From: a virus
Taxonomy: Duplodnaviria > Heunggongvirae > Uroviricota > Caudoviricetes
IMG/VR virus record: IMGVR_UViG_3300028833_000099
DNA: 64,000 nucleotides
Strand: one strand, 5' to 3'
Shown: positions 5,237 through 58,427 of the stretch, piece by piece
How the letters are laid out: each line of letters starts with the position of its first letter
Numbering within the stretch: position 1 is the first letter of the stretch
The notes under the pieces: model-generated
Told to the model about the DNA's origin: nothing
The model's database searches: none
Seen by the model: the letters and a program-made list of their open reading frames with translations, nothing else
Program-made: the position numbers and the translations under genes

Positions 5237-5554
5237 TTATTTCTTTTTTTTAGTTACGTTATAAGGATGGGTTGTGATTCCCTCAAGAATAGGAATCCAT
5301 ACAGTATGTATGTTTGGCTCACCGACTTTCAGCAATTTTGCATTATCTGGTCCGTATCCATAAGGACGAGGACCGTATTTTGCATTATGCATTTTTACAT
5401 ATTCCTCTTCATTATTGATGGGAATTTCTACCTCAATTTCTTTCCACAACCAAATGTAACATCCAGATACACTACCGTCTTCTTCTTTGAAAAGAAAATG
5501 CTTTCTTAAGTTTATTCCATGCGGCTTTATCAGACTTGAATTCCTTTGGGTCAC
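5237..5554 (-). CDS. hypothetical protein
   Basis: 105-aa ORF. Confidence 0.4.
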   Translation of the reverse strand: MTQRNSSLIKPHGINLRKHFLFKEEDGSVSGCYIWLWKEIEVEIPINNEEEYVKMHNAKYGPRPYGYGPDNAKLLKVGEPNIHTVWIPILEGITTHPYNVTKKKK

Positions 5555-12552: not shown

Positions 12553-13776
12553 TTATCCTATCTGCTTTTGGATATAAACGCATTTCTCTGGATTTCCAAG
12601 CGTCTTACCCTTGTCGTTTGACAACTTGATGCAATCAAGCCATTTTCTGTTTTCGGTGATTCTCATTCCAACAAGTTTGATGACTATATTGGAATAAGGG
12701 AACTTTTCATTTGTTTCACGGTTGGTAACGTCAGCCATAAGATGCGTTCCTATACCATAAGAATCCTTCATGCGCCCATCAAGCCACTTATGCAAATCAA
12801 TAGCTTTATCTATTGTAAGGGCATTGGAATATACTATTGACTTGGTTCTAGGGTCAATACCAAGAGAGTTATATTTCTCAATCATCTTCTCAGTCTCTTC
12901 CCTTTCGTCACCGCTGTCAATTCGGATTCCGTCAAACATCTTAGCCATGTCTTTAGAGAAATTGGAAAGAAATATATTACTTCCAAAGCAATCTGGAAGG
13001 AAAATGCCAAGGTCTCCTGAATACACATCTGACCATTTTTTCATTAGCTGATGATTACACTCAAACACACCACTTACGCACTCTTCGAAAGAGCAAAGTT
13101 GATGACTCATAGTTCCAATAGGAGTGAGGTCAAACTCTTTTGCAAGCCATACATTAGATGTTCCAACGAATTTACCAGTGCATTTTTCGTTTAAAACGCA
13201 CAAAGACTCCGCATCTTTAAGTGCTTTAACCACATCATAGTGGTTCTGGAAATCAAAACGCCTTCTAGTTCCCATGTCACTCAATAGAAGTCCATTGCTA
13301 AATGCTTTAACACCTTTTTCAACAGCCTTTTCATATTCATATGTTCTATCTACTTTTTCAATGTCACTATTGATGATATGCATGAGTTCAGATATTGTTG
13401 AAAGAATAGGCATTTCCCACATAATTGTAGAATACCATTTGCCTTCAATCATGATGGACAGATACCCATCAAGGTCTTGGAAAATATGTACCTCTGAGGG
13501 ATTAAATCTAAAACCACGTAGAAAGTTGTAATACCATTCAGGGAGGAAGTAAATACGATTCTTCATAAATTCTATTTCATCCTCTGTAATCACAACATCT
13601 TTCATGCCATTTATCTGTTCTTGCAACAGTTCACTAAAACCTTTTGGATAACGTGTGTGATTGCGGTCAAAAAATGAATACCGCACCTCTGCACGAGGAT
13701 ATGTGTGAAGAATGTAATACTGGCAAGTAAAAGTATACATATCTTGGTCGGTGAATTTAGTTACGATTTGCTTCAT
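12553..13776 (-). CDS. pncB: nicotinate phosphoribosyltransferase (PncB-like)
   Basis: 407 aa. N-terminal FTDQDMYTF and FRFNPSEV...WEMPILSTISELMH blocks are collinear with the E. coli PncB N-terminal region (from memory). Confidence 0.8.
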   Translation of the reverse strand: MKQIVTKFTDQDMYTFTCQYYILHTYPRAEVRYSFFDRNHTRYPKGFSELLQEQINGMKDVVITEDEIEFMKNRIYFLPEWYYNFLRGFRFNPSEVHIFQDLDGYLSIMIEGKWYSTIMWEMPILSTISELMHIINSDIEKVDRTYEYEKAVEKGVKAFSNGLLLSDMGTRRRFDFQNHYDVVKALKDAESLCVLNEKCTGKFVGTSNVWLAKEFDLTPIGTMSHQLCSFEECVSGVFECNHQLMKKWSDVYSGDLGIFLPDCFGSNIFLSNFSKDMAKMFDGIRIDSGDEREETEKMIEKYNSLGIDPRTKSIVYSNALTIDKAIDLHKWLDGRMKDSYGIGTHLMADVTNRETNEKFPYSNIVIKLVGMRITENRKWLDCIKLSNDKGKTLGNPEKCVYIQKQIG

Positions 13777-14908: not shown

Positions 14909-15820
14909 TCACTCTACCTTAATGTTTTCGATATTTTCGTGATACCATGTATTAAACTCTTCAAACTCTTCGTCTGAAAACTCCTTACGCACGGTATCGT
15001 ACTCAATATAATCGCAATATTTGACTTTTACGATGATTCTTTTACCGCTTCCATCGCAAAGTGGAATCACTGGACGAGCAACAATACCCTCCTCAATCAT
15101 AGTTGGGTCAGCAGCACCCTCAAACTGAGTTGTGAAACCACCCCTAACCTTATCTTCGATTTCCTTGAGTGTCATTATACCCAAGAAAGGAACAGTGCCT
15201 AGTCCAAGACCCTTACACAATGAGTCTCTTACATCCTTTGGTGTCCACCAACCTTGCTGTCTGATGTCAAACACACGGAATGCATTACCATTCTTAATGT
15301 AACGAGAACCGCACTTCTGAATACCAGTACCAAAATACTCTCCGTAGATATAAACTGGAACCTCTTCAAGTTCCACGCTGTAGAAACCTTTTGAGGGTGG
15401 CGTATCAATGATTGCATCTTTTCCAAGCTCTAGAGTATAGTACTGCACCTTGTTTGTCTCCTTATTTTTTACTGGAGTAAATCTAGCACTCTCTTTAGGG
15501 AACATTGCGCAAAGTTGTGGCTTGATACGCTCACCAATCTCTTGCAGCATTTCGAACTGCCCATGCTGAGAGCTTGATTTCTCGTTTTTACCTTCAATGC
15601 GAATCTCTTGGGTAGATGGGAAAAACGCAATTTTGCTACAAGTTCCATCAATCTTGCTATATGCCTCCCAAGTACAATTGAAAAGGTAACTAGCCTCAAT
15701 GTTTGAAAACTCGCCCAAGATTATTTTATTCTTGAACTTAAGCCACTTCTTATTTGGGCATTTAGACCCATCAAAAATATACCTTTTATACAAGGTGTTT
15801 ATTTTAGTGTATGCTTCCAT
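14909..15820 (-). CDS. Rnl2-family ATP-dependent RNA ligase
   Basis: Nucleotidyltransferase motif I SKIDGT, motif YGEYFGTGIQK...FRVFDI and EGIVARP are collinear with T4 Rnl2 (from memory). Confidence 0.7.
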   Translation of the reverse strand: MEAYTKINTLYKRYIFDGSKCPNKKWLKFKNKIILGEFSNIEASYLFNCTWEAYSKIDGTCSKIAFFPSTQEIRIEGKNEKSSSQHGQFEMLQEIGERIKPQLCAMFPKESARFTPVKNKETNKVQYYTLELGKDAIIDTPPSKGFYSVELEEVPVYIYGEYFGTGIQKCGSRYIKNGNAFRVFDIRQQGWWTPKDVRDSLCKGLGLGTVPFLGIMTLKEIEDKVRGGFTTQFEGAADPTMIEEGIVARPVIPLCDGSGKRIIVKVKYCDYIEYDTVRKEFSDEEFEEFNTWYHENIENIKVE

Positions 15821-18464: not shown

Positions 18465-19871
18465 TCATACCGTTAGGCTCTTTAATTTATTTTCAACAAT
18501 CTCAAATGCTTCATCTTTAGTCATATTAGGATTTTCAAAATATGCTTCTTTAACAGCCTCTAAAAGTATTCCAATATTTGGTCCACTTTTTAAATGAAAT
18601 TCCTTCAAAATATCGTCTCCAGAGATAGGAAGTTTAACATTTGCTGCTTTTTCAGCATCTTCCATTTCCTCTATTCTATTGAGAATATCAAGAACTTGCC
18701 GTTTTTTCTTACCAAAGGTGCAATAAAGATTATTGGCGTTCATTAGGTCAGCAGTTGCCCCCAAATCATCACCAGTTAAGTTGATAAATTTTCTAATCTT
18801 CTTATCTGGCGGTAATACGCCATCGGCATAACTTGCAAAACCTCTATGATGCTTAATGGCGGTTTCAACAGATTTGATGATATAATTAGGGTATTTCATG
18901 TCCTTCAAGTCGCTTGCAGCAATTTCTGCACTAAACTTATCTGGCATCACATCCCTACGTTTCTCTGTTATAATTCTACCAACATCATGGAACAAAGCAG
19001 CCAATCTGTTTTCTAAATAAGGCTGAACAGTATCTAGCACGTTCATCGTATGGTCAAATGTGCTAACCATAGGATTCCTTGACTCATAGGCGTAGGTTGT
19101 ATCATAAATATCGGGCATTACTCTATGCAAAATGCCACAGAAATACATTTTCCGAATACCGATGCTTGGTTTTTCACAAAGTAGAATCTTGGATATTTCG
19201 TCACTAATTCTTTCTTGCGATATAATTTTAATGCGGTGTGCATTTTTAATCATCCCTAACCAAGTGTTTTTTTCAATATCCCAACCGAATCTAGTTGAAA
19301 AACGAATTACACGTAAGATTCTCAATGGGTCATCATTGAACGTAACATCTGGGTCAGTTGGAGTCTTTATTACTTGATTTACCAAGTCATCTATAGAGCC
19401 GTTAAAATCATGTATTTTCTCTGTGCTGATGTTATAATACAGAGAATTGATAGTAAGGTCACGCCTTTTTGCATCCTCTTCAAGGCTTCCGAATACAGTT
19501 TCTGGGTTTCTGCTTTCCTTGTGGTACTGTTCCTTTCTAGTTTGGACGCATTCAATCTCTATATCTTTAAATTCATCGTTCTTGAACAATTGGAACTTCG
19601 CAGTTCCATAGTTTTCAAACACTACTGGATTAGTATTATGAATAAAACATTGGTGTTTTATTGCCATATATACAGCAAACAGCATTCCACCGTTTTTCAT
19701 TTCAACAACGATGTCAATGTCTTTAATGGGTAATCCTAACAATGCATCACGCACACAGCCACCAACCAAATATACTTTTCCTTCAAAATGAGTGTTTTTG
19801 ATTGACGCTTGTATGAGGTCAATTAGGTGTTTGATTCTATCATCAACTTTTTTAAATAATAGTTCGTTCAT
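18465..19871 (-). CDS. cca: tRNA nucleotidyltransferase (CCA-adding enzyme) with HD domain
   Basis: Pol-beta nucleotidyltransferase signature GGCVRDALLG...DIDIV plus an HD motif LFHDVGR. Confidence 0.85.
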   Translation of the reverse strand: MNELLFKKVDDRIKHLIDLIQASIKNTHFEGKVYLVGGCVRDALLGLPIKDIDIVVEMKNGGMLFAVYMAIKHQCFIHNTNPVVFENYGTAKFQLFKNDEFKDIEIECVQTRKEQYHKESRNPETVFGSLEEDAKRRDLTINSLYYNISTEKIHDFNGSIDDLVNQVIKTPTDPDVTFNDDPLRILRVIRFSTRFGWDIEKNTWLGMIKNAHRIKIISQERISDEISKILLCEKPSIGIRKMYFCGILHRVMPDIYDTTYAYESRNPMVSTFDHTMNVLDTVQPYLENRLAALFHDVGRIITEKRRDVMPDKFSAEIAASDLKDMKYPNYIIKSVETAIKHHRGFASYADGVLPPDKKIRKFINLTGDDLGATADLMNANNLYCTFGKKKRQVLDILNRIEEMEDAEKAANVKLPISGDDILKEFHLKSGPNIGILLEAVKEAYFENPNMTKDEAFEIVENKLKSLTV

Positions 19872-36976: not shown

Positions 36977-37061
36977 GTAGCGAGGGTTGGTTTCGAACCA
37001 ACGATGAGCCGAAGCTCCCTTCCTTATGAGAGAAGTGCGATAGACCACTCTGCCACCTCGC
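36977..37061 (-). tRNA. type II tRNA with anticodon loop CTCATAA (CAU)
   Basis: Acceptor GGCGAGG/CCTCGCT, Leu/Ser-like D-arm TGGCAGAGTGGTCTA, anticodon stem CTTCT/GGAAG and a long variable hairpin GAGCTTCGGCTC. Confidence 0.5.
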
Positions 37062-37134
37062 CATTAAGTAGCTGCGTCACTAGAATAAATCCGTTCACTA
37101 TGTTTAAGGTTGTGTACACATACCTACAGCTACT

Positions 37135-40117: not shown

Positions 40118-40166
40118 AATTATAAATATTCGAATACGTACAAAAATAATTAGTATCTGAAATTAG

Positions 40167-40250
40167 AACACCACATGGGATTCGAACCCATAAGACCTTT
40201 CGATACCTCTTTAGGAGAGAGGGACGCTTCCAATTACGTGCTAGTGGTGC
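40167..40250 (-). tRNA. tRNA-like gene (anticodon loop CTCCTAA, CCU; extended variable region)
   Basis: Acceptor GCACCAC/GTGGTGT, anticodon stem CCTCT/AGAGG, T-arm ATGGGTTCGAATCCCAT. At 84 nt it is atypical. Confidence 0.4.
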
Positions 40251-49385: not shown

Positions 49386-49689
49386 AAAAAAATATTTTTA
49401 TTACTATTTTAATTTATAGTGCAAAGGTACGAAAAAAAGTCGAACTAACCAAATAATTAGTCCAACTTTAACAATCTTTAACTTTACACTTGTTTTGCGC
49501 CTTGTTTATCTTAGGTCAATAATATAGAATAGGTTTACCTATACCAACCATAAAGGTATCCTCTTATCCATCAAGGAACTAGGGTAAGGGGCTAATCCTC
49601 GCACCGCATTACTGCTTCACCTACCATTTCTTACGTGGTTTGTGCTGTCTTACCTATTTCAGTACTTCACTTGAGTACACCAGCCGTAG

Positions 49690-49780
49690 TGAGCATAGTA
49701 GGATTCGAACCCACGATGAACTTTCTCAAGCCCATAACGGTTTTAGGGACCGCCACAATCGACCACTCTGCCATATGCCC
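49690..49780 (-). tRNA. type II tRNA with anticodon loop CCCTAAA (CUA), a candidate amber suppressor
   Basis: Acceptor GGGCATA/TATGCTC, Leu/Ser-like D-arm TGGCAGAGTGGTCGA, anticodon stem GCGGT/ACCGT, ~20-nt variable arm and T-arm GTGGGTTCGAATCCTAC. Confidence 0.5.
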
Positions 49781-50110: not shown

Positions 50111-50211
50111 AATGCAAATATATGAAAATTATTTTAAATAACAAAATATTTTCAATAGTTTTAACAAAAAAAAGCACTATAAGCTAAAGCCTATAGTACT
50201 TTTATATCGCA

Positions 50212-51719: not shown

Positions 51720-52046
51720 TTAAAGAATTTCTACTACTTTTCCGTAGATTTGGTTTCTACCTACCCATCCGTTCATATGTCCGTGATTGTTACCAATAAG
51801 ATATTCACTATCATTTTTAATTGCATGGATTAGGTGCAGATAATGATGACCTCTAACTTTGCAAAGAACAATATTTTTCTTTTCTAGTTTTGTGTCATCT
51901 TTTACTGGTTCACATATAACCGCTTGTCTTGATTTAAGAATAGGGGCCATAGAGTTACCAATACCAGTTACTTTACACGTCTCACCTCCTCTGAGGTGAT
52001 TGCAAGTTTCTTGATTTTCGAAACCGCTATAAGTAAATTCTCTCAT
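51720..52046 (-). CDS. S24/S26-like serine peptidase domain protein
   Basis: GNSMAPIL resembles the GDSMxP catalytic-serine motif of LexA/UmuD/signal peptidase folds, with a downstream conserved Lys. Confidence 0.5.
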   Translation of the reverse strand: MREFTYSGFENQETCNHLRGGETCKVTGIGNSMAPILKSRQAVICEPVKDDTKLEKKNIVLCKVRGHHYLHLIHAIKNDSEYLIGNNHGHMNGWVGRNQIYGKVVEIL

Positions 52047-52192
52047 ATGTTAATTGTTTAAGTGGAGTATTGGAGATTCGAACTCCAAGAGGTCTTATGT
52101 TTCCCGCCTCTCGTATGGTCTTCTTATGCATGAAACCGACCAGCAGGTCACCACCCAACGTGTTTATACCCCATGAGAATTACTTATTGCAG

Positions 52193-52310
52193 GGACTGAC
52201 GGATTCGAACCGCCATCGTTTATTAACAGTTAAAGGCACACTCTGTTCCGAGGTCGAGAGTGCTTTATTCCTTAAAGCGCAACAAATTACTTTACCATTA
52301 AGCTAAATCC
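52193..52310 (-). ncRNA. elongated tRNA-like RNA (Ser-GGA-like anticodon hairpin)
   Basis: Complementary termini AGGGATT/AGTCCCT, D-arm-like GCTTAATGGTAAAGT, hairpin GCTTT-AAGGAAT-AAAGC, a long hairpin CACTCT...AGAGTG and T-arm GGCGGTTCGAATCCGTC. At ~118 nt it exceeds any tRNA. Confidence 0.3.
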
Positions 52311-53377
52311 CTATATAAATACAAAAGACTGAGAATGTTGTCTTATTGTTAATGCCATTTTACAAGCGTTGGAACTTGCTATTCACACGTCACCTTACGA
52401 TGAACGTAGACATCATGCACGGAAGTCTTGAGAAGACAACCAAGAATCTTACTAGTTTAAACCTTGCGGTGCAGCATCATAGCTTTCAGTTCTTCGCCAA
52501 GCTCTTGCGGATTCATAGGATGCCTCCTATTAACTCAGACGAGTACTTTTACACGCTCATTGAATTCCTTGCGAGTCCTCAATGTCTCAATATTTCATGA
52601 GAATAAGTGCATTTTAGCTGCCTAGTGTCGCACACTTTTGCTTAAATTGATTTTTGAATCATATTTATGTTCCGTAGGCGGTTTGGAAGACGAGGTGCGA
52701 CTAAGGACATCTGTAACTTTTGGCTACAGCCCATCCAATCGCCTCCCTGTGCTAGCTCACCACAAGCTATTCACTATTATACACCATCACCTCATATGAG
52801 TTCTTACACATTTCTATGTAAGACTAGTGCATAACTGAGTACAACACGCCAACTGGTGATTATTGCATCATACTCCATACAGTAATCTATCGTGTCACCA
52901 CTCATTCAAAGATTCCTCACCCTTGAAAATATACAACTTTGGTGTTACCCACATTGTATACCGTACTGTATGCTTTTCAGTGAAATACATGAGAGTTTCT
53001 CATATATCTGCAACGTTTACCGCTAGTACACGTCACATTTATCCCATCACTGGATTATCCTTCCATCTGGCTACGAAAGCTAGCCATTAGCCTCATATCT
53101 TTCGCAAGATATTTCCTCATGGAAATTGGCTTATTTCTTGAGTTTTTCATTCGTTTTCAGTTTATTATAATAGGTAAACTGCTTCCTCTTTAGAGGTGGG
53201 TTCATATCCCAAGCTCCTATTTTTTAGCCCTACATCGAATTTTTTTACCCAATACTTACTTTTTTCTAGTACACGTTCTCTAGAATATGGTTCCCGAAGT
53301 TACCATTGCTATGGATTGTTTAACCACATAAAACCCATTTTTACCGTTGTCTACGGCACGAAAAGGCATATCTCGTT

Positions 53378-53530
53378 GGTTAGAGCAGATTTGCACTGCT
53401 GAAGCTTCCGAAGAAACACATCAAGCACGAACTTGATGCCCATTTGTCTACATCGTCATTGCTGACGTTCTCCTCTGGTACTAACCAAAAGGTGGTTTTT
53501 TGACTTGTCCACCACAAGGTATAGTGTGTA
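53378..53530. repeat. ~150-bp structured element, copy 1
   Basis: Copy 1 (~53378-53530) and copy 2 (~53683-53835) are ~90% identical direct repeats. Compensatory changes preserve two helices: AGCAG...CTGCT versus GCTAG...CTAGC, and TTGGTTAG...CTAACCAA versus TTGGTAGA...TCTACCAA. Confidence 0.6.
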
Positions 53531-53682
53531 GTATTGTAAAGGCTAATTCATTTTGCAGAACTAATTTAATGGTAAAGGACATCTGCTATGTTTCATACAG
53601 TTGTGTGTTTGTCGCAACCTCACTTTCCTCGCCAACCTTTACTGCCGATTGCACCTGAGCGTTTATACTACATTTGTTGGTA

Positions 53683-53835
53683 GAGCTAGATTTGCACTAG
53701 CGAAGACTCCGAAGAGCCACATCAAGCACGAACTTGATGCCCATTTGTCTACATCGTCATTGCTGACGTTCTCCTCTGGTATCTACCAAAAGGTGGTTTT
53801 TTAACTTGCCCACCACAAGAATAGTTGCGGCAGTA
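53683..53835. repeat. ~150-bp structured element, copy 2
   Basis: Second copy of the element at 53378-53530. It carries paired substitutions that maintain the helices. Confidence 0.6.
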
Positions 53836-53899
53836 GGAGTCGAACCCACTGTTACTAGGTTATGAGCCTAGTGTGTAAACCGTTTCACTCTGCCACGAT
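53825..53899 (-). tRNA. tRNA (CAU)
   Basis: Anticodon stem CTAGG/CCTAG with loop CTCATAA and T-arm GTGGGTTCGACTCCTAC. The acceptor has a position 1-72 mismatch. Confidence 0.45.
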
Positions 53900-54040
53900 A
53901 TTATGTATTTAAATCGGAAACTTTTTCTAAACGTTTCAAAGTGACAATTTGATGTTAAGAATAGTTTGCTGTGAGTTTCCTTTATTGTTTTCAAATCAAC
54001 AATGCAAAGATATGAAAAATATTTTTAATATCCAAATTTT

Positions 54041-54310
54041 TTAAGATTTCTTTGCATTTTTGGCGAAATACTCTTTGAGTTTAGCCCATTCTGAAAGGAT
54101 GGTACTATATTCATCGGCACTAAGTAATACTTCCTCTTTGCCATGCTCAATACTATCTGCTTGCCCCCTAAGTTTATCAACTAAATTGATTTTAAGAGCC
54201 TCATAATATTTTACGCTAACAATATTAGTAGCTTCTCCTTTGCTATACCCAGCCTCTTGAAGGTTTTTATATAGTTCACTTCTGAAATCTTTATCTAAAA
54301 TTTTACTCAT
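54041..54310 (-). CDS. hypothetical protein
   Basis: 89-aa ORF downstream of the promoter at ~54338-54380. Confidence 0.4.
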   Translation of the reverse strand: MSKILDKDFRSELYKNLQEAGYSKGEATNIVSVKYYEALKINLVDKLRGQADSIEHGKEEVLLSADEYSTILSEWAKLKEYFAKNAKKS

Positions 54311-54390
54311 TGTATGTCTTTTTCTTTAACAGTGCAAAAATATACAAAATTTTTGAAAGTTCCAAATTTTAAGCGATTTTTTTAAAGATT

Positions 54391-54651: not shown

Positions 54652-55165
54652 AACTAAATTGTTTTTTTACTTTAAAAATAATCAGCTACACGAACCTCTT
54701 CAATGTACTTATGAAAGATTCCCTTCCATACATGTTATACAGATTAACGCATGACTTATATCCTAATATAGCCTAACTTTACTGTAAAAGTTTACTTCAT
54801 CATCCAACCCTGACTGATTATTTAGTGGACTTGCGCAGAGTCGAACTGCGGTCCAAACAACCATTCCATAAGAAATTATACAAGCTTTGATTTGGAAAGT
54901 TGACAGCAAACGCTGCCCTCACCGCTACCTTATTTTGCGAAAACAAGGAAAACTATACAAAGATGACTAAAGAATAATGCTAGGGTGTTCTGTTCCTAAG
55001 AGCCTAGCCTCTCGGCTTACATTACGCAGCTATAGCGTACTCGTAAGCAGGAGAATCAACATTCTCGCCAGTTATATTTTTTTGCTATTGAAGTGTATGC
55101 CCACTGCTTGTTTCTTACCAAATGCATTGCTGTCAAATCCATTACAAGCCCATGATAAAAAATTG

Positions 55166-55379: not shown

Positions 55380-55940
55380 TTACACGTCTTTAAATGCTTC
55401 AATAAAATGTTTCAAAATCATTGCATTTTCTATGACGCAAGTCGGAACTGCTTCTCTAAGGCTTTCAACATCCTCTTTCAAAATCATTTCTCTTACTTTC
55501 GTAGCAGAAAGACTATTATGGATAGTTCCTCTTGCATTAAGTTTGAATGATACGAAATCTCTCGTAATGAAAGGTGGAAACCACTGCATAATTATCTCAA
55601 AACCATCAGAGTAATATATTGTAAACTCTGGAGATTTTGTAAACCCAACAATGTGGCTATAGAGATAAAAACCCCAATCATGAGAATTGTCCGATTCATC
55701 TGTAAGGTCTGCTAATGGTTGTATTATAACCCTTTTAGAGTCCTCTTTAAATGCCTCTTCTATCGCCTTATTAGCGAGTTCCAATCTCATGGCAATTGGT
55801 ATTGGATTCCTTTTATTGAGTTTATCAGCAGAACCAACGAGCAGAAGAACATTTTCATTCTCGTTTAGTGCTTGCCGTATTAACTCAAGATGCCCTTTAT
55901 GTATGGGCTGTATTCTTGCAATGATAACACCTACTGCCAT
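55380..55940 (-). CDS. nadM: nicotinamide/nicotinate mononucleotide adenylyltransferase (NadM-type)
   Basis: N-terminal ARIQPIHKGHLELIRQA carries the (H/T)xGH nucleotidyltransferase motif, very close to archaeal/bacterial NadM GRFQPFHKGH. 186 aa. Confidence 0.75.
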   Translation of the reverse strand: MAVGVIIARIQPIHKGHLELIRQALNENENVLLLVGSADKLNKRNPIPIAMRLELANKAIEEAFKEDSKRVIIQPLADLTDESDNSHDWGFYLYSHIVGFTKSPEFTIYYSDGFEIIMQWFPPFITRDFVSFKLNARGTIHNSLSATKVREMILKEDVESLREAVPTCVIENAMILKHFIEAFKDV

Positions 55941-56437
55941 TATAAATATTGTTTTATGTTAAAAAAAAAATACGGAAACATGTTTTTAGAAATCAAAATT
56001 AAAAGTTTTGCTCTTAAAAATTCCTAATATTTGCTGTATGTTTCCTTAGTGCTTGTGATAGGATTTGAACCTACTGTACCCCACTATAAGATGGCGTGTG
56101 TCTGCCAATATATCACCCCTCAAGCATGTTTCGCCTACTGTACCCCTTCGAGCCATCGCAGACTTGTCTTGCATTAACGTAGTTAAGACCAATATACGGC
56201 ATTCTTAATCTAAAGTATGCTTACGAGCACGTTATAAAGAATATGGAGTTGTTTAACTTGTCCTGTTTATAAACCCCTAACGTACAAAAGGTTATTTTTC
56301 AGTATATCTAAAATGAAAACCACAATGAGGGCATAAAAACACCTCACCATTCTCATCAATCGCATTGGAAACGTCAATTTTGACATGATTTCCACATCTT
56401 ACACATTCTACTTCCATAACATTTATTTTTATAATGC

Positions 56438-56495
56438 AAAGATATGTAAAAAAAATGAAATAGCCAAATATTTTAACATTTTTTTTTATGAAAAA
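56438..56495 (-). promoter_or_regulatory. promoter module
   Basis: AATGCAAAGATATGTAAAAAAAATGAAATAGCCAAATATTTTAAC. Related modules lie at 54003-54045, 54338-54380, 56758-56805 and 60043-60105. Confidence 0.55.
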
Positions 56496-58151: not shown

Positions 58152-58338
58152 TCCACCACATAAATGCTAGCGATGTTCCAATTACAAAATACAAAATAGT
58201 AATAATATATTCAATACTCATAACAATAGAGTAGGCTTCCTCTACCTACCACGACAGTTAACGGTTTTTGTTAGTTCAAGGTACTAATAGACCAAGCGCA
58301 GTGCTCTGTTACACCGTAAACACCGATAAGGATTATCG

Positions 58339-58427
58339 CACACAGGGCAGGATTCGAACCTGCGGTAGGATTTTAAACCTACGTTAGTTTTGGAGACTAA
58401 TGGGTTAAACCACTCCCCCACCTGTGT
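58339..58427 (-). tRNA. type II tRNA with anticodon loop CTCCAAA (CCA)
   Basis: Acceptor ACACAGG/CCTGTGT, anticodon stem TTAGT/ACTAA, variable hairpin CGTAGGTTTAAAATCCTACCG, T-arm GCAGGTTCGAATCCTGC. It has a Leu(CAA)-like body with C35. Confidence 0.45.

Follow-up and report, generated by a model that had tools for sequence, protein, structure and literature searches.

The minus strand of a viral contig in IMG/VR (record IMGVR_UViG_3300028833_000099), of which 64,000 nt were analysed and are called the window here, carries a non-coding region between positions 52313 and 53824 with two copies of a tRNA-like element (TLE). The TLE is a member of a large RNA family supported by covariation, and its predicted fold has the layout of a class-II tRNA cloverleaf. 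tRNA mimicry by small RNAs is already known, and the TLE itself matches no family in Rfam 15. Downstream of the two copies lies a predicted divergent GOLLD RNA of about 800 nt (52326–53124), and the whole region reads most simply as one minus-strand operon of non-coding RNAs on a phage contig. The transcript of this operon is probably processed by the tRNA-maturation machinery and would give an anticodon-less mimic that most likely binds a factor recognising tRNA shape. The two TLE copies and the pseudoknots that precede them are the following:

53373–53490, minus strand: TLE copy 1 (covariance model R1, 141 bits, E 5e-35)
53491–53518, minus strand: H-type pseudoknot preceding TLE copy 1 (same covariation basis as copy 2)
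53674–53791, minus strand: TLE copy 2 (model R1, 144.5 bits, E 5e-36)
53792–53819, minus strand: H-type pseudoknot preceding TLE copy 2 (40 variants, 96% of cells paired)

The longest minus-strand stop-to-stop frame between 52313 and 53824 has 55 aa, and read-through of TAG, TGA, or TAA extends the longest frame to 111, 74, and 143 aa, respectively. The stretch between the genes at 52190–52313 and 53825–53897 thus has no credible open reading frame (ORF), any stop-codon reassignment included. Its GC content is 40.3%, compared with 34.2% for the whole window. Both features agree with the sequence-only reading of this DNA, which had described the region as ORF-free and above background in GC.

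A repeat search aligned 53387–53518 with 53688–53819 at 91% identity and an offset of 301 nt. With the pseudoknot included, the repeat unit runs on the minus strand from 53518 to 53373 and from 53819 to 53674; the duplication of an element of about 150 nt noted earlier is therefore real, but the boundaries then given were a few bases off. The 118-nt cores have 17 differences, 16 of which are eight base pairs changed on both sides and all still pairing, with three in P1, two in P4 (the UUCG hairpin), and three in P5 (the T-like arm). The sole unpaired difference sits after the element. Compensatory substitutions had been seen before in P1 and P5, and all eight changed pairs keep their pairing; the UUCG hairpin adds a third set, in which GUUUC/GAAGC becomes GGCUC/GAGUC. 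The hairpin CATCAAG...CTTGATG occurs in both copies as reported. GGTGG...CCACC is also found in both, not as the simple hairpin first proposed but as stem 2 of an H-type pseudoknot. The window copies are positional orthologues of copies in two related loci (L006 and L063), which argues against a recent duplication.

The TLE family and its fold

An exact 26-mer from the TLE occurs in IMGVR_UViG_3300021256_000001 (295 kb), taken as the source contig, and in three other viral contigs. The wider family was collected with a gapped pattern, AGAGGAGAA-N10-20-ATGTAGACAAAT, used in place of an earlier 14-mer whose scan of viral contigs gave mainly chance matches. This pattern matches 28 stretches in IMG/VR viral contigs, many of them on contigs of 100–412 kb, at least 119 stretches in metagenome contigs, and none in 185,579 reference bacterial and archaeal genomes. 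BLAST of the TLE, and of the GOLLD 5′ domain with the adjacent 248-nt stretch, found no real match in 50,697 isolate phage records, and no close isolate relative was found for the window as a whole. The covariance model R1 was built from 17 copies. Its strong matches in the window number exactly two, at 144.5 and 141 bits; the viral loci contribute 49 matches, of which one is a true tRNA, and the metagenome loci contribute 151 among the matches listed. Neither Flavobacterium phage FpV4 nor Prevotella phage Lak-A1 has a TLE match to R1 with the filters off. The fetched loci contain at least 183 non-redundant copies, and the family comprises at least 143 distinct full-length sequences from large viral and metagenome contigs. 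A search of the TLE alone against Rfam 15 at E up to 10 returned only noise and no family match, and no description of the element was found in the searchable literature.

An alignment of 134 distinct sequences, which was fitted to the model and in this way favours pairing, has standard pairs in 99.1% of cells and double-sided changes in 26 of 33 pairs, whereas a control with the partners slid by 1–3 columns has 33–46% pairing. In an unfitted MAFFT alignment of the 17 copies, 96.9% of cells are paired against about 40% in the control. The earlier suggestion of a selected RNA secondary structure is thus upheld by covariation between the two copies and across the 134 homologues. The larger alignment also contains 128 G-U cells, which would be A-C mismatches on the opposite strand; this indicates an RNA read from the minus strand. 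About 50 unpaired positions are more than 97% invariant.

The 5′ part of the consensus is nUUUG-NNNNN-UA-CCA-GAGGAGAAC-(GNRA hairpin)-GAUGUAGACAAA-UGG-G, and the 3′ part is (7-bp stem, UUCGUG/GGUAA loop)-U-(5-bp stem, mostly UUCG)-UUC-(5-bp stem, loop UGCAAAU)-NNNNN-CAA-C. The arms follow the order acceptor, D, anticodon, variable, and T. The acceptor-like P1 has 7–8 bp and is followed by a 2-nt UA linker; hardly any variation occurs in its bottom three pairs or in the flanking U and C, and the inner pairs covary freely. The D-like stem consists of three pairs, CCA/UGG, with a pair swap that is CG in 90 sequences, GC in 43, and other in 1. The "D loop" of about 33 nt comprises two invariant purine-rich strands and an inserted GNRA hairpin. 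At the anticodon position there is a 6–7-bp stem with the loop UUCGUG in 98 and GGUAA in 23 of the 143 sequences; a 7-nt anticodon loop with U33 and an anticodon is absent from this set.

The T-like arm, a 5-bp stem whose 7-nt loop has a G-C closing pair, adjoins the 3′ strand of P1 without a linker. With this closing pair, the loop reads GUGCAAAUC in 132 of 143 sequences; in two members of the family the T loop is the canonical UUCAAAU instead. The phage tRNA-Cys (6001–6073) and a tRNA-Met on the related phage contig L068 share the T loop UGCAAAU with the TLE, and R1 detects both of these tRNAs. The tail is CAAC in 142 of 143 sequences, followed by N. In the 17 of 17 ARAGORN tRNA genes of the window that were checked, the discriminator N73 is followed by C and then by a non-C, and the conserved end boundary of the TLE is explained by this N73-C74 pattern, which it shares with the tRNA genes of the phage itself. 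Every checked tRNA gene of the window encodes only the first C of CCA.

The features shared with class-II tRNAs are the arm order, the UA linker, the 3-bp D stem, the abutting acceptor and T stems, the 7-nt G-C-closed T loop with U1, C3, and A5, the UUCG-capped variable arm followed by three nucleotides ending in C, and the A and C after the acceptor. An acceptor stacked on a 5-bp T stem, a G-C-closed 7-nt T loop, and a discriminator followed by C74 are likewise in line with tRNA. In contrast, the TLE has a 7-bp stem with a 6- or 5-nt loop for its anticodon arm, the D loop of about 33 nt, and G2 in the T loop. The phage has tRNAs of class-II shape as well, 85–92 nt in length and with long variable arms:

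36977–37062, 40166–40250, 58338–58427, and 49689–49780, minus strand: class-II-shaped tRNAs for Met, Arg, Trp, and the CUA suppressor, in this order

The tRNA-Arg and tRNA-Trp have 3-bp D stems, and the variable arm of the tRNA-Met, GAGC-UUCG-GCUC followed by AUC, is a close parallel to P4 with its UUC. A class-II shape is unusual for Met, Arg, and Trp.

The element CUUG-U-GGUGG-A-CAAG-(A-rich, 6–11 nt)-CCACC-UU precedes 66 of the 183 non-redundant copies, including both copies in the window. Stem 1 is formed by CUUG/CAAG, and its loop GGUGG pairs with CCACC past the A-rich linker. Among the 40 variants, a stem-1 pair is CG in 16, GC in 13, and UA in 9, and a stem-2 pair is GC in 37, UA in 2, and AU in 1, and no variant breaks a stem-2 pair or one of the four core pairs in stem 1. 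The structure is an H-type pseudoknot.

GOLLD, transcription, and genomic contexts

GOLLD RNAs have been known since 2009 and their nanocage structure since 2025. To our knowledge the function of GOLLD has not been established, and a new, abundant family of tRNA-shaped RNAs adjoins it here. The other features of the region and its borders are as follows:

52190–52313, minus strand: tRNA-shaped gene with a 53-nt insertion (Rfam tRNA 42.1 bits; ARAGORN with intron option; relatives alike)
52326–52747, minus strand: predicted GOLLD 3′ region, the conserved half, including a tRNA-accepting linker (RF02032 85.7 bits; HMM; RNAalifold)
52748–53124, minus strand: putative GOLLD 5′ domain, the variable half (alignment of ten 5′ regions)
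53125–53372, minus strand: additional segment of 248 nt that separates TLE copy 1 from the GOLLD 5′ domain (seen in the alignment of ten 5′ regions)
53535–53673, minus strand: conserved structured spacer module between the TLE copies (13 variants; hairpins with compensatory changes)
53825–53897, minus strand: tRNA-Met (CAU), first gene of the unit (ARAGORN; Rfam tRNA 49.7 bits)
54005–54036, minus strand: Bacteroidota-type promoter motif TTTG-N-TAnnTTTG, the likely start of the non-coding RNA operon (pattern enrichment)

At the Rfam gathering thresholds the gap yields tRNAs only, and GOLLD emerged only in the E-value mode. There, RF02032 matches 52326–52747 on the minus strand with 85.7 bits and E 3e-22 over model positions 1–416, which is the whole model; the score is below the gathering threshold of 150 bits for GOLLD. 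Five TLE-bearing relatives have GOLLD matches of 70–85 bits, and such uniformly low scores suggest a divergent GOLLD branch. No helix of the model is left out of the RF02032 alignment, and the pseudoknot strands are covered as well. The GOLLD 3′ region was recovered by a family HMM at 13 loci, one of which is in Prevotella phage Lak-A1, and RNAalifold of the 13 homologues gives 99 pairs, 41 of them with double-sided changes. A tRNA is embedded at the same linker position in five of the 13 (L006, L019, L131, L142, and L144); PMC12286853 and PMC12990946 describe a variable linker in GOLLD that can hold an embedded tRNA.

The 377-nt block 52748–53124 is common to ten aligned loci and brings the total with the 3′ region to 799 nt. 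For env-38 GOLLD, PMC12286853 gives a 5′ domain of 420 nt and a conserved 3′ region at residues 421–833, and places this RNA downstream of a Met-tRNA as well. The 416 positions of the RF02032 model fit that 3′ region, and the 377-nt block fits a GOLLD 5′ domain, matched to published GOLLDs by size and place and not by sequence. The RNA predicted at 52326–53124 is similar to GOLLD in its conserved 3′ half, tRNA-accepting linker, and position in a phage tRNA island after tRNA-Met, and its putative 5′ domain would give it the layout of about 800 nt with a variable 5′ half. In contrast, its score of 85.7 bits is below 150, and the TLE is not in the GOLLD model. The sequence-only reading had called the location typical of RNAs of the GOLLD/ROOL type. 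GOLLD does occur in the stretch, but the duplicated element is not part of the conserved GOLLD or ROOL structure: the TLE lies 250–700 nt upstream of the 5′ domain core, has its own units and arrays, is tRNA-like, and matches no Rfam family. ROOL was not among the Rfam matches for 51900–54100 at E up to 10.

Two side observations concern GOLLD. Positions 2367–2769 of Lak-A1 (L002) hold a GOLLD-like 3′ region (family HMM E 1.6e-35) with no TLE nearby, and the Rfam GOLLD model did not report this locus at E up to 0.01. In the window, a hairpin at the end of the 5′ domain of GOLLD (52752–52766 in plus coordinates) has a covarying stem and the conserved loop UGUGGUG, which resembles the stem-1 hairpin of the TLE pseudoknot; this likeness could be chance or a shared docking motif.

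Nearly all genes of the window, with 19 ARAGORN tRNA/tmRNA genes and a tmRNA, are on the minus strand, and ARAGORN and Rfam agree with the earlier statement that the region stands beside a tRNA array. The motif TTTG-N17-23-TAnnTTTG, an established Bacteroides promoter type, occurs 30 times in the window against 5.0 expected, with 27 of the 30 on the minus strand, and 15 times against 0.96 expected in L010, a locus on the same contig outside the window. The match at 54036–54005 on the minus strand is 108 nt upstream of the tRNA-Met, and the next minus-strand match downstream is at 50145; further matches include 54335–54366 and 56437–56468 on the minus strand. A simple terminator scan, which overlooks the long-loop GC hairpins read directly from the sequence after stand-alone TLE units, found no terminator-like site within the region. 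The positions of these promoter matches and the lack of an internal terminator-like site make one transcription unit the simplest reading. The promoter motif, together with relatives in Prevotella and Flavobacterium phages, suggests a host in the Bacteroidota. The source samples are probably rumen or gut metagenomes.

Among the 183 non-redundant copies, 34 come right after a tRNA 3′ end and 31 abut another TLE, in head-to-tail arrays of up to five copies with 115–117-nt spacing. The cassette of tRNA-Met, TLE(s), GOLLD, and insertion-tRNA is found in the window, L006, L047, L063, and L068, and L019 has the same cassette with no insertion-tRNA detected. In every tRNA-array locus with TLEs, GOLLD follows 340–630 nt downstream of the last copy, one to five TLE copies precede it, and 0–248 nt of unrelated sequence separate the TLE from the GOLLD core across loci. 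A divergent GOLLD branch from large phages is in this way added to those known, with promoters and nearest relatives that point to Bacteroidota hosts and with one to five TLE copies before GOLLD in its TLE-bearing tRNA-array loci.

The TLE also exists as an independent gene. Stand-alone units consist of a promoter, a pseudoknot-TLE, a second tRNA-like piece, and a GC hairpin with a U run. In L010, where the fetched locus has no GOLLD, the order is a Bacteroidota-type promoter, a leader of about 100 nt, the pseudoknot-TLE, a degenerate tRNA-like piece, and a GC-rich hairpin with a U run; the next promoter follows. The second degenerate element after the TLE (L010 at about 5440–5520, minus strand; also L005, L015, L133, L136, L140, and L143) has a TLE-like P1, a UUCGAUU T loop, and a ...CAAC tail, in some cases with long insertions in the anticodon arm, and ARAGORN does not call it.

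Processing and possible roles

In the proposed mechanism, the operon transcript would be cut up by tRNA-maturation enzymes. At the base of P1, RNase P would cleave 5′ of every acceptor-like stem and free the pseudoknot leader. Trimming from the 3′ side would halt at the A-C end, and a CCA-adding enzyme encoded by the phage would complete the CCA; a CCA-adding-enzyme-like protein (PF01743 and PF12627) is encoded at 18468–19871 on the minus strand. What would remain is a tRNA mimic of about 115 nt that lacks an anticodon and is both stable and abundant. GOLLD would receive its 5′ end from these same cuts and its 3′ end from the downstream tRNA. The invariant core of the mimic most likely forms a surface similar to the tRNA elbow, which would bind a factor that recognises tRNA shape; the invariance of both the core and the P1 end points to a specific partner. 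The TLE is a new substrate for asking how tRNA-maturation enzymes treat anticodon-less mimics, and it connects phage tRNA biology and tRNA mimicry with giant RNA cages in a way that can be tested.

This processing model has a precedent in YrlA of M. smegmatis, a tRNA-like RNA with a 7-bp acceptor stem that is cut by RNase P and receives CCA according to PMC4201824. The TLE resembles YrlA and Y RNAs in its length of about 100–120 nt, its tRNA-like T and D features, and its kind of occurrence, in bacteria and phages. In contrast, the ends of YrlA form the Ro60-binding stem and its acceptor-like stem is a closed hairpin, whereas the TLE ends form the acceptor-like P1; the GNCGAA motif is not seen in the TLE consensus, and there is no Rfam match. 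TROVE/Ro60 is absent among the 23 Pfam families found in the 66 ORFs of the 64-kb window.

The species 1 and 2 RNAs of T4 (rnaC and rnaD) are stable RNAs of unknown function that are co-transcribed with the tRNA cluster and matured by tRNA-processing enzymes. They are small RNAs beside phage tRNAs like the TLE, but are single-copy and are not known to be linked to GOLLD. The plant-virus tRNA-like structures (Tymo_tRNA-like, RF00233) share tRNA mimicry and an adjacent pseudoknot with the TLE. However, they are 3′-terminal in RNA virus genomes and have the pseudoknot inside the acceptor arm, and RF00233 matches only the true tRNA-Met of the region (E 0.22) and not the TLE.

Several points weigh against a processed, freestanding tRNA mimic. 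The Rfam tRNA model (RF00005) has no match on 53365–53530 at E up to 10, and ARAGORN is silent there. The D region of the TLE is far larger than that of any tRNA, and position 2 of the T loop (position 55) is G. The near invariance of the P1 end goes beyond the needs of simple punctuation and suggests a specific reader of this part of the helix. The model gives the pseudoknot no role, and cleavage by RNase P, the addition of CCA, and a separate RNA species of 115 nt are all deduced from sequence. TLE and GOLLD are tightly linked in every tRNA-array locus, and the TLE could therefore work with GOLLD and not merely beside it. A mimic that receives CCA, is perhaps aminoacylated, and works with GOLLD, either as cargo or ligand of the nanocage or as a high-copy decoy for host enzymes or immune nucleases that recognise tRNA shape, is given a modest chance at best. 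If the TLE does work with GOLLD, the strict linkage would be a concrete handle on GOLLD function.

A related, unlikely reading makes the TLE an integral outer domain, partner, or cargo of GOLLD, which is attached at the 5′ end or docks to the nanocage in trans. This would account for the presence of GOLLD 340–630 nt downstream of the last copy in all tRNA-array loci with TLEs, and the cages are proposed to hold tRNAs, in line with the linker tRNAs in five of 13 homologues. The UGUGGUG loop at the end of the GOLLD 5′ domain, with its likeness to the pseudoknot hairpin, also fits. However, separate promoter-to-terminator TLE units have no GOLLD in the fetched locus, one of them on the same contig, and the number of copies before GOLLD varies from one to five. 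The 0–248 nt of unrelated sequence before the core argue against a fixed geometry, and the sole conserved complementarity between the TLE and GOLLD is a 7-mer inside a GOLLD helix, judged not significant.

That the TLE acts as a novel ribozyme, which would cleave itself and so divide the polycistronic transcript into RNAs of unit length, is distinctly improbable. Phage islands of non-coding RNA often carry ribozymes, the invariant junction strands lie within a multi-helix junction, and the head-to-tail arrays keep their unit boundaries (UUUG...CAAC). Against this, no Rfam ribozyme (hammerhead, twister, twister-sister, pistol, hatchet, or HDV-like) matches at E up to 10, the conserved boundary is accounted for by the N73-C74 pattern of the phage's own tRNA genes, and each TLE helix has its counterpart in a tRNA arm.

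A reading of the copies as pseudo-tRNAs in decay, or as repeats that act at the DNA level (for instance as recombination sites or iterons) and have no RNA function, would suit a tRNA-island location and copies unrecognised as tRNAs, but is very unlikely given that at least 143 sequences keep all helices through double-sided changes, about 50 unpaired positions are more than 97% invariant, the 128 G-U cells would be mismatched on the other strand, and the positional orthologues in L006 and L063 exclude a recent duplication. The chance that the region is protein-coding under an alternative code, as hinted by the tRNA(CUA) at 49689–49780 and by the slight increase in coding coverage of the window on TAG read-through, is close to negligible: the 111-aa TAG-read-through frame crosses both structured copies, the substitutions between the copies track base pairing and not codon positions, and most of the remaining stretch is covered by the GOLLD and tRNA models. 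The sequence-only reading had itself named a protein under an alternative genetic code as what would speak against it, and read-through of TAG, TGA, or TAA gave no plausible ORF.

Neighbouring RNAs and genes

The spacer module between the TLE copies (53535–53673, minus strand) has 13 sequence variants in related contigs and compensatory changes in three hairpins, and matches no Rfam family. It also occurs at 76% identity in genomes of the Flavobacterium phage FpV4 type; in FpV4 (L001) it occupies 2474–2604, inside an ORF-free gap of 2.3 kb and about 420 nt upstream of the tmRNA. The 248-nt segment at 53125–53372 contains several hairpins and is found only in the window, L006, and L063 among the ten aligned loci.

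The insertion-tRNA at 52190–52313 begins 13 nt past the GOLLD end and has a hairpin insertion of about 53 nt near positions 31/32. With the intron option, ARAGORN reads it as Asn(GUU) with a weak anticodon stem, and it may be another non-decoding tRNA-like RNA. In the relatives it always comes directly after GOLLD:

L047 6136–6261: insertion-tRNA
L063 10358–10481: insertion-tRNA
L068 3877–4000: insertion-tRNA
L006 7731–7854: insertion-tRNA

A further possible tRNA-like RNA of about 110 nt at 52063–52173 on the minus strand has the T arm UUGGA-GUUCGAAUC-UCCAA and the acceptor UGGGGUA/UACUCCA, and is called by neither ARAGORN nor Rfam. The small ORFs flanking the region are without informative domains.

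The suppressor-type tRNA (CUA) at 49689–49780 on the minus strand hints at TAG recoding. The phage tmRNA at 54823–55151 on the minus strand encodes the tag GENVDSPAYEYAIAA, and the pair of tRNA(CUA) and tmRNA recurs in related contigs. An RNA ligase (PF09414) is encoded at 14912–15820 on the minus strand. The window also encodes an NAD-salvage set (12556–13776 and 55383–55940, minus strand, and others) with NAPRTase, an NMN-adenylyltransferase-like protein, NADAR, NUDIX, and CinA, as well as DHFR and HIT.

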